DNA from: Actinomycetes bacterium
GTDB taxonomy: Bacteria; Actinomycetota; Actinomycetes; S36-B12
Assembly: GCA_965278945.1 (NCBI GenBank)
Contig: OZ257128.1
Location: forward strand, 1,608,403-1,672,402
Direction: 5' to 3'
Length of the DNA stretch: 64,000 nucleotides
Positions 3,819 through 48,632 of the stretch are shown one piece after another. The notes beneath the pieces were generated by a model. The model was not told the origin of the DNA and did no database searches. It saw only the letters and a list, made by a program, of their open reading frames with translations. The position numbers and the translations under genes were made by a program. Within the stretch, counting starts at the first letter, position 1. Every line of letters starts with the position of its first letter.

Positions 3819-3856
3819 GTCCAGATGCTCCCACCCCGCCCCGCCCCCTCCCCCCT

Positions 3857-3916
3857 CGAGTGGGCAGTTGTGGTCGTCAGATTCGCCCTCAGAGCAGCCA
3901 CAAGTGCCCACTCGCG
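3857..3916. repeat. REP-like palindrome copy A (60 bp)
   Basis: CGAGTGGGCAGTTGTGG (3857-3873) / CCACAAGTGCCCACTCG (3898-3914); arms 43/44 identical to copy D. Confidence 0.9.
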
Positions 3917-10515: not shown

Positions 10516-10545
10516 CGCGAGTGGTCAGTTGTGGTCGTGGAAATC
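10516..10545. repeat. REP-like palindrome copy B, left arm
   Basis: CGCGAGTGGTCAGTTGTGGTCGTGGAAATC; complementary to 11830-11858 except one extra G. Confidence 0.85.
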
Positions 10546-10552
10546 TCGGCAG

Positions 10553-11820
10553 GTTCAATCGGTGAGTGCAACGCCTGAGTGGTGGAGGCGTTGTGGCTGG
10601 TTCGGATCGGTATTACTCGTGGGAGCGGCGTAGGCCGTTCTTCGACGCGATTGCCCATGGTGCGTCGTTTCTGGAGGCGGTCGCGGTGGTGGGCGCGGCG
10701 GGGTCGGCGTGCCAGAAGTGGTGGCGGCAGTCTTCGGGCATGCAATTGACGTTGGGGGTGCGCGGGGGCTTGAGGATTGTTCCTGGCGGGGATGGGTTTG
10801 TCGGGGACAAGTTGACGGCGCTGGAGCGCGATCAGATCGGCACGGGTCTGGCGGCGGGCTTGTCGCAGGCGGCGATCGCGCGTGTGATCGGGCGTAGCGC
10901 GTCGACGGTGTCGCGGGAGGTCCGCCGTAATGCCGGGCCGGATGGGACGTATTACGGGTCGCTGGCGCACGTGAAGGCGTTCCAGCGGGCTCGCCGGCCC
11001 AAGGGTTTCAAGCTGGATGGGCGCGCGGATCTGATCGCGGCCATCACCGGCTGGCTCGATGATGGGTGGAGTCCGCGGCTGATCGCCCTCGTGCTGGCCG
11101 AGCAGGGCGGCGGGGACAAGACTGCACGGGTGTCGCACGAGACGATCTACCAGTCCCTTTACGTGCAGGCGCGCGGGCATCTGCGCGCGGACCTGCATCG
11201 GGCCTTGTCCACGGGCCGTGCCCGGCGCCGATCACGGACCGCGACCCGACGTGGTCCCAGTCCGTTCTCCGATGCCCTGACGATCTCCCAGCGACCCTCC
11301 GAGGTCGATGACCGCGCCGTGCCAGGTCATTGGGAGGGCGACTTGATCCTGGGCACCGGATGCGCCTCGGCGATCGGGACCCTGGTCGAGCGGTCGACCA
11401 GGTTCACGATCCTGCTGCACCTGCCGATCGATCACACCGCGGAGGAAGTCGCCAAGGCGATGATCACAGCGATGGGCGACCTGCCCGAGCACCTGCGCCG
11501 CTCGATCACCTGGGACCGCGGAAGCGAGCTGGCCCGCTGGCGCGACATCCAGATCGCCCTGGACACGCAGTTGTTCTTCTGCGACCCGCACTCACCCTGG
11601 CAGCGTGGCAGCAACGAGAACACCAACCGGCTGCTACGGCACTGGTTCACCAAGGGCACCGACCTGTCCGTCCACGACGTCACCGAGCTACGCCGCGTGC
11701 AGGACAAACTCAACTCCAGACCACGCCCTACCCTTGGACTGAAGACCCCCGCCCAAGCACTCGCGGAATACCTCGAGCAGCAGGCGGCCTAGACAACCGC
11801 GTTGCACTCACCGATTGACA
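10553..11820 (+). mobile_element. IS30-family insertion sequence
   Basis: Perfect 20-bp inverted repeats TCAATCGGTGAGTGCAACGC (10555-10574, 11799-11818) around an IS30 transposase; ends uncertain by 1-2 bp; no clear target duplication. Confidence 0.92.
10566..11792 (+). CDS. IS30-family DDE transposase
   Basis: HTH (LSQAAIARVIGRSASTVSREVRRN), VSHETIYQ, HWEGDLI, TWDRGSE, PWQRGSNENTN. Confidence 0.95.
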   Translation: MQRLSGGGVVAGSDRYYSWERRRPFFDAIAHGASFLEAVAVVGAAGSACQKWWRQSSGMQLTLGVRGGLRIVPGGDGFVGDKLTALERDQIGTGLAAGLSQAAIARVIGRSASTVSREVRRNAGPDGTYYGSLAHVKAFQRARRPKGFKLDGRADLIAAITGWLDDGWSPRLIALVLAEQGGGDKTARVSHETIYQSLYVQARGHLRADLHRALSTGRARRRSRTATRRGPSPFSDALTISQRPSEVDDRAVPGHWEGDLILGTGCASAIGTLVERSTRFTILLHLPIDHTAEEVAKAMITAMGDLPEHLRRSITWDRGSELARWRDIQIALDTQLFFCDPHSPWQRGSNENTNRLLRHWFTKGTDLSVHDVTELRRVQDKLNSRPRPTLGLKTPAQALAEYLEQQAA

Positions 11821-11829
11821 TCGCCCTCC

Positions 11830-11858
11830 GATTTCACGACCACAACTGACCACTCGCG
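11830..11858. repeat. REP-like palindrome copy B, right arm
   Basis: GATTTCACGACCACAACTGACCACTCGCG. Confidence 0.85.
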
Positions 11859-45988: not shown

Positions 45989-46835
45989 CGACGCAGCCAT
46001 TCGTGCGAAACCCGGAAGCGCTAAGTTCCTCCCAGCGCACGGGCGCGCTCGCGCGCCGACCATCAGCCAGTGGGAGATTGCCCTGCAGACCTTCAGCCCT
46101 CGGGAGATCCAGTCTCGGGTTCGCGCGGGCGCCTCAGCAGAGACGGTCGCCAACGACACTGGGTGGCCGCTCGACAAGGTGCTTCGCTACGCGGAGCCCC
46201 TGTTGGCGGAGCGCGCCTTCATTGCCGAGCAGGCGCTCGCCGTCGAGGTTCGCCGGTCCTCCGGCGGCGCAACCCTGCGTCAGGCCGCTGCCGCTGCAGT
46301 AGGCGTGCCCACCGACTCCGACGCGATCGTCTGGGATGCCTGGCGGCGCGAGGACGGCAAGTGGGTAGTCGCGGCGACGTATAGCGAGAAGAACAAGTCG
46401 CGCACGGCCGAGTGGACCTACGACCACTCCGGACGCAATATCCACCCGCTCGACGACAACGCCCGCTCCCTCATGGGGGTGCGCTCCATCGTCGACGACC
46501 GCGATGCGATCGCCGACGCCCTCGACCTCGTCTCGGACCACGAGCCAGAGCCCGAGCCCGTCGAGACCCGACCGCGCCTGGTCGCCGTGCCCGATGCCGA
46601 GGATGCGGCCTCCGACGCGGACGACGTCGATGATGCGGACGACGCGGACGAGCCCGAGGAGCCGGAGAGCATCGCGCCGGTGGTTCCTGAGCCAGAGCCT
46701 GCGCCCAAACCCAGGACCGCGAAGAAGGCTGCTCCGACCAAGGCCCCGGCCGCGAAGTCCCGCAAGGGCCGCGCCCACGTGCCCAGCTGGGACGAGATCC
46801 TGTTCGGCGCCACCCGCCCCGACGACCAGCCCTAG
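45954..46835 (+). CDS. sepH: Septation protein SepH (DUF3071), start uncertain
   Basis: SPREIQSRVRAGASAE.VA, KVLRYAEPLLAERAF, WDAWRREDGKW, acidic linker, C-terminal RAHVPSWDEILFG. Confidence 0.8.
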   Translation: MIRPTTCAGRINDAAIRAKPGSAKFLPAHGRARAPTISQWEIALQTFSPREIQSRVRAGASAETVANDTGWPLDKVLRYAEPLLAERAFIAEQALAVEVRRSSGGATLRQAAAAAVGVPTDSDAIVWDAWRREDGKWVVAATYSEKNKSRTAEWTYDHSGRNIHPLDDNARSLMGVRSIVDDRDAIADALDLVSDHEPEPEPVETRPRLVAVPDAEDAASDADDVDDADDADEPEEPESIAPVVPEPEPAPKPRTAKKAAPTKAPAAKSRKGRAHVPSWDEILFGATRPDDQP

Positions 46836-46846
46836 CACCACCCCCA

Positions 46847-46906
46847 CGCGAGTGGGCACTTGTGGCTACCAGAACGTGCCAGTTCGCGACCACAACTGCC
46901 CTCTCG
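46847..46906. repeat. REP-like palindrome copy C (inverted relative to A and D)
   Basis: 21-nt arm identical to A/D; 23-nt arm 20/23 identical to A; 16-nt unique centre. Confidence 0.9.
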
Positions 46907-46927
46907 TGTGACTGATTCGGCGTGCGA

Positions 46928-47800
46928 TCAGCCGCGGACAAGCGCCGAGTTCACGAGCGCGACCATTCGTTCCGGGTCCTTCAGATCCTGTGCGGTGAAG
47001 ACGATCACCTTCCACCCCGCGTCCTGCAGCAAGTTGCGTCGCAGCGCATCCTTGCGCCGCTGAACTTCGGGCAGGTGGACTATCCCGTCGTACTCCGCGA
47101 TAACCCGTTCGCGACGCCACACCATGTCTGGACGAGCTAGCCATTCACCGCCGACGATGAGGTCGATATTGCACTCGGGCTTCGGTACGCCCCGCTGCAC
47201 GAGGACGCACCGCGCACATGACTCTCCGGGCGACTCCGAGCCCGGGTCGAGGAGAGGCAGTGCCTGGCGCGCGGACCTCACGCCACGTCGACCGTGCGCC
47301 CAGCGAATCACTGCGTTGACTTCGGCGACCGTCGCAAGGTTTCTGCGCAGCAGGTTGTCACCTATCGCCACCAGATGTTCGATCGGCACCAGCTCGGCGC
47401 AGTCCACCCAGGTACGAGAGGGACGTGTGATCGTTCGACCCCGATCCTCGACGAGATGCTGCACTGGTAGTTCCAACCGACGACCGCGGACTCCAGTCCT
47501 GCGCTGTCGCGAGGCTCCGCGAGCGACGGCGACGCTGATTGGTCGCTTCGCAAGTTCAAGCCCGATCCGCGGAGGTAGTGGCAGTCCCCAGTGCTGTGCA
47601 GCAGAGAGGTCGCTGAGGACTGACACGTCCGCCTTTGTGATGAGGGCAGCTTGGGTAAGTGCCTCGACTGGTTCGGCCGCGTCGTCGCGGACCCGGACGC
47701 CTCGCGACGGAGCGACGTACGGAAGTCGTCTTGCCTGAGCGCGAGTGAGCCCTTCAGCCCCGGTCGCAGCGACGAGGAAGGCACGGCTCTCGGACGTCAT
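46928..47800 (-). CDS. AbiEi-like N-terminal region + DUF559 (PD-(D/E)xK, Vsr-like) endonuclease domain
   Basis: LSDLSAAQHWGL, TRPSRTWVD, SESPGES, RPDMVW..ERVIAEYDGIVH, D..RRN.LQDAGWKVIVFT..DL. Confidence 0.85.
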   Translation of the reverse strand: MTSESRAFLVAATGAEGLTRAQARRLPYVAPSRGVRVRDDAAEPVEALTQAALITKADVSVLSDLSAAQHWGLPLPPRIGLELAKRPISVAVARGASRQRRTGVRGRRLELPVQHLVEDRGRTITRPSRTWVDCAELVPIEHLVAIGDNLLRRNLATVAEVNAVIRWAHGRRGVRSARQALPLLDPGSESPGESCARCVLVQRGVPKPECNIDLIVGGEWLARPDMVWRRERVIAEYDGIVHLPEVQRRKDALRRNLLQDAGWKVIVFTAQDLKDPERMVALVNSALVRG

Positions 47801-47851
47801 GAACGAATTGCGCCCGCACCGGAGGCGGATGTGACCAGCCAGGACGTCAAA

Positions 47852-47890
47852 TGTGGATACGGGACCGGCGGGTGGTCAACGTGTGGATCA
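47852..47890. promoter_or_regulatory. Two DnaA-box-like 9-mers, 30 bp apart
   Basis: TGTGGATAC (47852-47860) and TGTGGATCA (47882-47890), each 8/9 to TGTGGATAA. Confidence 0.5.
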
Positions 47891-47902
47891 GCAATCAGTC
47901 CG

Positions 47903-47962
47903 CGAGTGGGCACTTGTGGTCGTCAAAACATCGCGTCGCGTAGCCACAAGTGCCCACTCGCG
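47903..47962. repeat. REP-like palindrome copy D
   Basis: Perfect 19-bp stem CGCGAGTGGGCACTTGTGG (47901-47919) / CCACAAGTGCCCACTCGCG (47944-47962). Confidence 0.92.
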
Positions 47963-47984
47963 TGGGGGTGGCGGGGGTGGCGGG

Positions 47985-48632
47985 TCAGCCGAAGGGCAGG
48001 GGCTGCGGGGACATGTGCGCCTGCGCCGCCCGCGCTGACGTCATCCGGGCTCGGTAGTGCTGGCGGCACAGCACCTCGTAGGCGATAGCCGACGAGGACT
48101 GGGTGTTCGTGTCGCCCACCAGGACCTGGTCGCCCTCGACCACCATCTCACCGTTGACCGTTCGCGCATTGTGGATCGCCCGCACCCCGCACCAGCACAG
48201 TGCCTCGACCTGCAGAACGTGGACGCGGTCGGCGAGCTCGACGAGCCGGGCCGATCCGGGGAACAGCCGGGTGCGGAAGTCCGTCATGATGCCGAAGGCA
48301 TAGACGTCGACGCCGAGGTCGTCGACGACCGACGCGAGCTGCTCGACCTGCTCCTCGGAGTAGAACTGGGCCTCGTCGCAGATGAGGTAGTCCACCCGCT
48401 CGCCCTGGGACAGCCGGTCGACCACGAGTGCCCGGAAGTCCAGGACCTCGTCCACCTCGACCGCGGGCACCGTCAGGCCGAGCCTGCTGGACAGCACGGA
48501 CTCCCCGGCACGGTCGAGCTGGGTGAGCACGATCCCCGCGCGGCCGCGCGAGGAATGGTTGTGATCGGTCTGCAGGGCGAGCGTCGACTTACCGCAGTCC
48601 ATCGTTCCCGCATAGAAGATGAACTCCGCCAC
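47985..48632 (-). CDS. tdk: Thymidine kinase
   Basis: GTMDCGKST, CDEAQF, FGIMTDFR, EALCWCG...LCRQH. Confidence 0.95.
   Translation of the reverse strand: MAEFIFYAGTMDCGKSTLALQTDHNHSSRGRAGIVLTQLDRAGESVLSSRLGLTVPAVEVDEVLDFRALVVDRLSQGERVDYLICDEAQFYSEEQVEQLASVVDDLGVDVYAFGIMTDFRTRLFPGSARLVELADRVHVLQVEALCWCGVRAIHNARTVNGEMVVEGDQVLVGDTNTQSSSAIAYEVLCRQHYRARMTSARAAQAHMSPQPLPFG

Follow-up and report, generated by a model that had tools for sequence, protein, structure and literature searches.

Why does one nuclease gene lie between two matching hairpins in the interval between sepH and tdk of an actinobacterial chromosome? The locus belongs to a 64,000-nucleotide stretch of DNA (the window; contig OZ257128.1, positions 1,608,403 to 1,672,402) from an S36-B12 member of the Actinomycetes, and consists of a gene for a DUF559/Vsr-fold protein framed by 62-nt palindromes. 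The organism and its relatives are uncultured and represented by metagenome-assembled genomes; the genome studied here is a single 3.55-Mb contig containing the window. Dispersed palindromes such as REPs (repetitive extragenic palindromic sequences) are known mainly from Proteobacteria, with an HUH transposase (RAYT) as their partner. A first-pass annotation made from the letters of the window had proposed a non-transposase mobile unit or a gene resembling a REP caretaker, and this proposal stands: the unit holds no transposase, its palindromes are matched to it and the sites concerned are polymorphic. The feature is real, non-random and conserved across the class. We have high confidence in the association between gene and palindromes and in its mobility, and the comparisons described below show the palindrome–gene–palindrome unit to be what is apparently inherited and moved, with matched variants and with sites that are gained or lost.

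An inverted-repeat search of the window identified a 32-nt repeat (46838–46869 and 47940–47971) with 100% complementarity, in agreement with the exact reverse complement described in the first-pass annotation. Each end is itself a hairpin, as had also been seen, formed by a 62-nt palindrome with a 24-nt loop; the left arms (46847–46865/46890–46908) pair at 16 of 19 positions and the right arms (47901–47919/47944–47962) at all 19. The unit starts 2 nt past the stop codon of sepH (DUF3071; 46833–46835) and ends 13 nt before that of tdk (thymidine kinase; 47985–47987), distances that agree with those given earlier, and no target duplication is visible in the sequence at its ends, again as reported. 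The two neighbours are convergent, and one open reading frame (ORF) lies between the palindromes. The features of the unit are as follows (window coordinates).

46838..46846: C-rich outer flank CCACCCCCA, complementary to 47963–47971 and belonging to the perfect 32-nt inverted repeat.
46847..46908: 62-nt palindrome on the downstream side of the gene, starting 20 nt past the gene stop; a member of the R1 covariance-model family.
46909..46917: inner flank TGACTGATT, complementary to AATCAGTC at 47893–47900.
46928..47800, minus strand: 290-aa DUF559/Vsr-fold nuclease gene.
47852..47890, minus strand: two copies of a TCCACA motif resembling a DnaA box, TGTGGATAC at 47852–47860 and TGTGGATCA at 47882–47890 (plus-strand letters).
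47893..47900: inner flank AATCAGTC, complementary to TGACTGATT.
47901..47962: palindrome upstream of the gene, 62 nt, ending 100 nt ahead of the start codon.
47963..47971: G-rich outer flank TGGGGGTGG, part of the 32-nt inverted repeat.

The complementary inner flanks are those that had been recorded as shared inward extensions of the arms. The gene has a GC content of 65.1% and a GC content at third codon positions (GC3) of 69%, compared with a GC3 of 92% for tdk and ~84% genome-wide (crude gene set), which bears out the lower GC content remarked on previously; low GC3 is common to all paralogs in the genome. The outer arms of this unit (unit A) match each other at 32 of 32 positions and the inner arms at 27 of 31, the inner count including flank and loop bases. 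Both matches run into the flank and the loop, while the hairpin arms of each palindrome pair over only 19–21 nt. Such a sequence pattern fits either a palindrome-ended element having gone into the apex of a palindrome that was already there or a crossover of the attL/attR type, and taken alone it does not separate homing from site-specific recombination.

We next turn to the rest of the genome, where tblastn revealed four full-length paralogs, with B, D and C being 72%, 55% and 52% identical, respectively, to the window copy A; three further DUF559 matches were C-terminal only. The earlier description of a single gene thus holds for the content of the unit, with its one ORF, but not for the genome. 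All four full-length paralogs are bracketed by palindromes. Palindrome loci, gathered by pattern, nhmmer and core-motif searches, form a dispersed family of ~38 members with three sub-types. The computational checks put forward in the first-pass annotation all came out on its side. The sub-types, their assignment to the paralogs and the further copies in the window are as follows.

Type 1 palindrome: CGCGAGTGGGCA[GC]TTGT...
Type 2 palindrome: GTTGAGTGGCCAGT[CT]GTGGGGG
Type 3 palindrome: GTTGAGTGGTGA...
Paralog A: type 1a palindromes on both sides.
Paralog B: type 1b palindromes, with a 204-aa ORF between B and the distal palindrome.
Paralog C: type 2 palindromes.
Paralog D: type 3 palindromes, both split by IS30.
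3855..3916 of the window: solo palindrome of type 1a, intact.
10516..11858 of the window: palindrome split at its apex by an IS30-family element (arms 10516–10534 and 11840–11858; 408-aa transposase with HTH_38 and rve domains).

Each paralog is bracketed by its own sub-type, which leaves no sub-type in the genome without a resident gene. For ~38 palindromes spread over ~3000 intergenic regions, the probability of a given gene having a palindrome on each side at random is ~1.6 × 10^-4. The arm motif has four matches in the window against 0.01 expected, and the dispersed copies that had been placed at 3857 and 10516 are the intact palindrome and the IS30-split palindrome listed above. In addition to the pairs, the genome contains ~30 solo copies of the paralog-flanking sub-types, mostly right behind stop codons. 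Among the intact palindromes, 16 of 26 lie between convergent genes, compared with ~18% of intergenic regions, and one lies between divergent genes; these context classes are approximate, as the crude GC3-based gene caller behind the map overlooks about one quarter of genes. The usual distance from a stop codon to an intact palindrome is 30–60 nt. The inverted orientation of the ends, which had been taken as a property of the unit, is true at the window locus but is not general, because the elements are themselves palindromic.

Further ORFs are found in similar surroundings. At C1:1765186–1765859, an ORF of 164 aa, whose N-terminus resembles a signal peptide and which has no Pfam match, lies between two type-1 palindromes, so the nuclease gene is not alone in being framed by a palindrome pair. 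Paralog B (C1:631530–633324) adjoins tandem paralogous genes of 204–280 aa with the motif RRSPDHPLRR...EYRYRLKMPGL and no Pfam match; in the related genome G020 (L002 464–3195), each tandem gene is followed by a palindrome.

Comparison of orthologous sites among the relatives uncovered the gain and loss of both palindromes and units. The sepH–tdk site, for which a comparison with close relatives had been suggested, is empty in G009 (4 nt between the stop codons) and in G003 and G042 (25 nt). In G020, the closest relative (tdk 91% identical), it contains one solo palindrome with C-rich and G-rich flanks; in the window it contains the full unit, and in G017 a full unit turned the other way round, whose gene is 52% identical and whose palindromes are of another variant. 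A second site, that of paralog C beside a glycosyltransferase-like gene, is occupied in G000, G020, G003, G019 (model scan) and G007 (coordinates); G017 has a solo palindrome there, and in nine species the site is empty. The solo palindrome of G020 at the first site and that of G017 at the second each match the type found around the resident genes of the respective genome. Copy B shares 73% identity with the copy at the equivalent position in G020, with a dN/dS of 0.13–0.15, indicating purifying selection, and a dS of 1.28, compared with 0.48 for tdk, the one gene that serves as the baseline between these genomes. The low dN/dS together with a dS above that of tdk means that the protein has been kept functional, but that the lineages are older than the host split or that copies have been exchanged.

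The DNA around the palindromes also varies with occupancy. Wherever a palindrome or unit is present between sepH and tdk, a C-rich tract precedes it and a G-rich tract follows it, and empty sites are without these tracts (L032 2159–2264; L044 343–369 and 1476–1494; window 46836–46846 and 47963–47984). This means either that more than the 62-nt palindrome was inserted or that the tracts arise in the course of insertion. At the RNA level, each convergent transcript would carry a C-rich stretch followed by a hairpin, an arrangement that is rut-like. The 'empty' paralog-C site of G009 (L098 1465–1497) reads cccgcctctcCGCACTCGCGgagggggctcggc, a mini-hairpin of C-rich and G-rich halves that contains CACTCGCG, the final 8 nt of a right arm of type 1; this could be the trace of an excision or deletion, or simply chance. 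The two TCCACA copies belong to the 100-nt leader that separates the upstream palindrome from the start codon. Of 16 aligned loci, 15 (L002, L007 and L009–L018 among them) have a [TC]CCAC[AG] motif at the corresponding position, 15–45 nt inside the upstream palindrome, and its consensus RTCCACAGC resembles the actinobacterial DnaA box TTGTCCACA. This motif might serve as a promoter element, as a DnaA site or as a site bound by the nuclease protein itself.

The association extends well beyond this genome. Homologues are present in 33 of 41 relatives, with 2–7 copies each, and palindrome pairs bracket 13 loci from other species of the order, with arm sequences of their own and the same geometry: a palindrome, 100–135 nt, the gene, 10–25 nt and a second palindrome. 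An alignment of 43 palindromes is almost gap-free, with invariant GA..GG and CC..TC boxes at fixed spacing; the palindromes start with CG[CT][GT]GAGTGG and the loops contain no conserved core. Of the 22 stem pairs, 19 show compensatory double changes, and G-U intermediates are nearly absent. This Watson-Crick-only covariation fits selection at the DNA level, although a hairpin functioning in both transcripts would produce it as well.

To quantify co-occurrence, the palindrome covariance model and the protein profile were run on the same 151 genomes of the order. Both were found in 21 genomes, the palindrome only in 7, the gene only in 8 and neither in 115, corresponding to an odds ratio of 43 (p = 1.3 × 10^-13); with one vote per genus, the sole correction for kinship, the p-value is 1.1 × 10^-5. 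Every palindrome-rich genome carries the gene (15/15). The co-occurrence with lineage-specific hairpins anticipated in the first-pass annotation is thus observed, with other lineages having palindromes of their own. Within the class, 131 of 251 genomes contain the full-length family, which is represented in 77 of 138 genera. In other orders, 9 of 14 loci are bracketed on both sides by ~60-nt palindromes, with the motifs CGAATGG, CGATTGG, GTTGATCATGG and CGAGATCGG, and in two of these genomes (G257 and G279) the flanking palindrome is also dispersed, with no hits in controls. The cultured Arthrobacter sp. ERGS1:01 encodes a 32%-identical homologue (WP_054009319.1), annotated as a hypothetical protein and bracketed by GTTGAGGGCCC[AG]GATAATCC palindromes. 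A related-locus search with the single window protein gave three loci, each from an uncultured metagenome-assembled genome. Phage or plasmid cargo was rejected as an account of the family, as there was no phage match and the only plasmid matches were two distant ones on Arthrobacter megaplasmids.

The protein encoded by the unit has a C-terminal nuclease domain (approximately residues 205–290) of the DUF559/Vsr-fold PD-(D/E)xK type. PF04480 (DUF559) matches residues 225–284 with 27.4 bits (cut-off 20.6; E = 3 × 10^-6) and is matched by 43 of 45 family members. An AlphaFold (AF2) model built from the 45-sequence alignment (pLDDT 92.6, pTM 0.89) has the Vsr-type fold, so that the PD-(D/E)xK/Vsr-like assignment made at first sight is confirmed. 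The top Foldseek matches were 3r3p, the catalytic domain of the homing endonuclease I-Bth0305I (probability 1.00, TM 0.67 over the target), and 3hrl (DUF559), both of which the protein profile also recovers by sequence. In the alignment, D225, E236, D251, R254 and R255 are invariant, and D238 and H242 are at least 90% conserved. From the alignment to 3hrl and 3r3p, we infer a catalytic role for the conserved acidic and histidine residues; the residues of E236-Y-D238-G-x-x-H242...D251 align to 3r3p at a different spacing, and may correspond to the E-D-x-H-D motif.

The remaining two thirds of the protein, on the N-terminal side, gave no solved relative by sequence. Weak PADLOC matches to AbiEi (E = 1.5 × 10^-3 and 2.3 × 10^-3) cover residues 34–171, and among the 45 family members Pfam AbiEi_1 matches two and AbiEi_4 one; the window protein has no Pfam AbiEi match even at E up to 10. 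The AbiEi-like region that had been proposed is accordingly backed by the PADLOC matches and by a few homologues, but not by Pfam in the window protein itself, and the N-terminal and middle region may be called distantly AbiEi-like, with putative DNA binding. The PADLOC scan for defence systems returned nothing beyond these matches. No AbiEii partner gene is present between the palindromes or among the neighbours sepH and tdk, and a Pfam scan of the unit returned DUF559 only, with no DDE, HUH, serine or tyrosine transposase.

Known sources of dispersed palindromes were also considered. RAYT-driven REPs were rejected, as the Y1/HUH transposase family PF01797 is absent from the whole genome, while six control genomes give matches. 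IS30-family insertion sequences (IS), with HTH_38 and rve transposases, split 12 of the ~38 palindromes exactly in the loop, which makes the palindrome apex a strong IS30 target. They lie at window 10516–11858, at C1 612539, 624997, 641385, 746643, 932484, 1019485, 1298680, 2368264 and 2721903, and in both flanks of paralog D (~1930100 and ~1931250), and fall into two sub-families with 402-aa and 408-aa transposases. The IS30 sequence is identical between copies and begins inside the loop, whereas the arms outside differ from copy to copy; the palindrome is therefore the target of the IS and not its terminus. For the same reason, palindromes as miniature inverted-repeat transposable elements (MITEs) of IS30, or arms as IS30 terminal repeats, were rejected. 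IS30 is a secondary invader of the palindromes, not their source. The unit does resemble an IS–MITE pair in combining an autonomous unit with many short non-coding derivatives, but it has no DDE, serine or tyrosine transposase, no usual terminal inverted repeats and no target duplication, and each 'MITE' would be a single self-complementary palindrome. Among the IS30 copies, the one at 746643–749406 is interrupted by an IS256-like element and that at 2368264–2370014 is disrupted. The copy at C1:1019485–1020810 has mismatched palindrome arms, type 3 on the left and type 1 on the right, which suggests recombination between IS copies in different palindromes.

The closest parallel is the REPtron, in which a RAYT (TnpA-REP, HUH Y1) accompanies REPs or REPINs. 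Both systems have a low-copy gene between two copies of a dispersed extragenic palindrome, a palindrome variant for each gene copy, co-occurrence of gene and repeat across genomes, and repeats that are targets of IS elements. They differ in the enzyme, which here is a Vsr-fold PD-(D/E)xK protein and not an HUH tyrosine transposase (PF01797 being absent), in copy number (tens here, hundreds there) and in host (Actinomycetes as opposed to mostly Proteobacteria). The palindromes of ~62 bp are also longer than REPs and lack GTAG/CGTC tags; in the RAYT-plus-REP layout, a GTAG (or CGTC) tag is found at one end of a 20–40-bp REP (PMC3733652). A second parallel is I-Bth0305I (EDxHD; PDB 3R3P), which has the closest solved catalytic domain and is a multidomain homodimer with a ~60-bp footprint (PMC3239194), close to the 62-bp span of the palindrome. 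Rapid turnover combined with purifying selection on the protein is likewise shared with I-Bth0305I and free-standing homing genes. I-Bth0305I differs in residing in a phage group I intron and in interrupting its target, whereas the present gene is intergenic and chromosomal, lies between two intact copies of a presumed multi-copy target and has an unrelated, AbiEi-like N-terminal region.

On these comparisons, the best explanation, in which we have moderate confidence, would be a REPtron-like, selfish or semi-domesticated palindrome–nuclease unit built on an unrelated nuclease and probably of the homing type. That the nuclease acts on its palindromes is, in our judgement, rather likely. The homing-type route itself is a tentative working hypothesis with a clearly lower probability, and can be outlined as follows. 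The unit would comprise a 62-bp palindrome, a leader of ~100 nt with TCCACA, the 290-aa gene, 10–25 nt and a second 62-bp palindrome. A protein dimer would bind the outer boxes CG[CT][GT]GAGTGG ... CCACTC[AC][AG]CG, which have a fixed spacing, through the AbiEi-like N-terminal part, and the Vsr-fold domain would then cut within or beside the palindrome. Repair of the break from a gene-bearing copy would place palindrome, gene and palindrome into the cut palindrome in a homing-like manner; since the target is symmetric, either orientation of the unit could result. Recombination between the flanking palindromes might delete the gene, leaving a solo palindrome, or invert the unit. The host would tolerate the solo palindromes and might use them as bidirectional 3′-end hairpins, because of their location between convergent genes. 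The wider proposal of a new class of mobile element, in which a Vsr-fold endonuclease with an AbiEi-like module creates, spreads and maintains its own ~60-bp palindromes without a transposase or recombinase, is possible, although we place it somewhat short of probable; solo palindromes would then be traces left by the element or landing pads for it, as well as secondary insertion hot spots of IS30.

Several points weigh against this explanation. Binding, cleavage and the transfer step are all things that we infer from sequence. A classical homing endonuclease gene interrupts its target, whereas both palindromes flanking the gene are intact here and should be cleavable, and homing does not explain a first arrival at a naive site such as the 4-nt sepH–tdk spacer of G009. 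Conservation of the palindrome peaks at the outer ends, while the specificity of I-Bth0305I peaks at the centre. Paralog B in G000 has no palindrome directly after its stop codon, and the clustering of solo palindromes around gene copies is no more than marginal (p = 0.045). The eight gene-only genomes have strong gene matches with no palindrome recognised by the model, and the seven palindrome-only genomes have no strong gene match, some of them having weak matches and some being fragmented assemblies. The dS comparison, finally, is calibrated on tdk as its one gene.

Other explanations account for parts of the same evidence. A cassette moved by site-specific recombination, with the palindromes as attC/dif-like sites, a circular intermediate molecule, a recombinase encoded elsewhere and the nuclease as addiction or defence cargo, would explain why the 32/32 outer and 27/31 inner arm matches of unit A follow an attL/attR (B-O-P′/P-O-B′) pattern, why the inner flanks are complementary in unit B as well, and why both orientations of the unit are found at one site (sepH–tdk). 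Xer-dependent dif modules and integron cassettes are likewise small modules bounded by imperfect palindromes. We nevertheless regard this as unlikely, since the unit has no recombinase gene, no integrase or Xer-type core is recognisable, and the cargo belongs to one gene family across the class with arms that vary with the gene, which would be unexpected for a generic site. The orientation of the loops is inconsistent too, direct in B and inverted in the syntenic G020 copy, and as a test of recombination against homing it is uninformative. Another view takes the palindromes as operators of an autoregulated DNA-binding protein and the solo copies as regulatory or decoy sites, with no protein-driven mobility. 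AbiEi antitoxins, of the type IV AbiE toxin–antitoxin systems, bind inverted repeats in their own promoter, which would suit the weak AbiEi similarity, the putative DNA-binding protein beside inverted repeats, the one palindrome that is always upstream of the gene and the joint variation of protein and site. Yet the second palindrome is always behind the stop codon, the repeats are dispersed as well as present on both sides, a nuclease domain is fused whose active site is conserved under purifying selection, the AbiEii nucleotidyltransferase is lacking, and presence/absence and orientation are polymorphic at two orthologous sites. The position of the solos behind stop codons, with a single divergent case, disfavours operator or regulon sites in particular, and we consider this view improbable.

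A system acting at the RNA level is of the same low probability as the operators. Here, the palindromes would be bidirectional 3′-end hairpins and the Vsr-like domain would bind or process RNA hairpins in the manner of RAP/FASTK-type proteins, which would agree with the location of the solos 30–60 nt past stop codons and with the C-rich and G-rich tracts that give each convergent transcript its C-rich stretch before the hairpin. A precedent for a Vsr-like fold acting on RNA is FASTKD4 (PMC11879112). This reading leaves unexplained why palindromes and units come and go at orthologous sites, and the nearest solved relative is a DNA homing endonuclease; the almost purely Watson-Crick pairs with few G-U also speak against it, although a function on both strands would select for the same. 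The least credible explanation is coincidence, whereby palindromes spread by the IS30 transposase or another enzyme would pile up around horizontally acquired genes. It can call on the IS30-family elements in 12 of ~38 palindromes and on the pairs that also bracket two other ORFs, the unrelated one of 164 aa and that of 204 aa next to paralog B. Against it stand the matched variants at four of four paralogs, the layout conserved across the class, the co-occurrence with its odds ratio of 43, and the IS ends that lie inside loops while arms differ between identical IS copies, which makes the arms targets; the paralog and cross-lineage data have already largely refuted it.

The reading of a palindrome–nuclease unit, if true, would provide a second lifestyle of a gene with its cognate palindrome, convergent with RAYT/REP: the genomic signature is the same as that of REPs, in actinobacteria and with an unrelated nuclease family that carries the labels 'DUF559' or 'hypothetical protein'. 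It would also give a role to a large uncharacterised family and an origin to a class of intergenic hairpins in high-GC Gram-positive bacteria. Should long (~60-bp), protein-matched sites be recognised, nucleases of programmable specificity are conceivable, and the bracketed copy in the cultured Arthrobacter makes the system testable now. The palindrome-framed DUF559 unit appears to be unpublished, as no description of palindrome-flanked DUF559 genes was found in the open-access literature.

Two observations concern more distant members of the family. In G039 (L030 847–921 and 2247–2316), a 29%-identical homologue lies amid another hairpin repeat, GCAAAATCGACCAAGAC, which may represent a further palindrome family. 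A ~40%-identical member lies ~10–11 kb from tdk in three species of the genus (G018:C4:110750, G002:C13:424520 and G007:C18:29163), though not in the genome studied here, and may be an older, positionally conserved copy.

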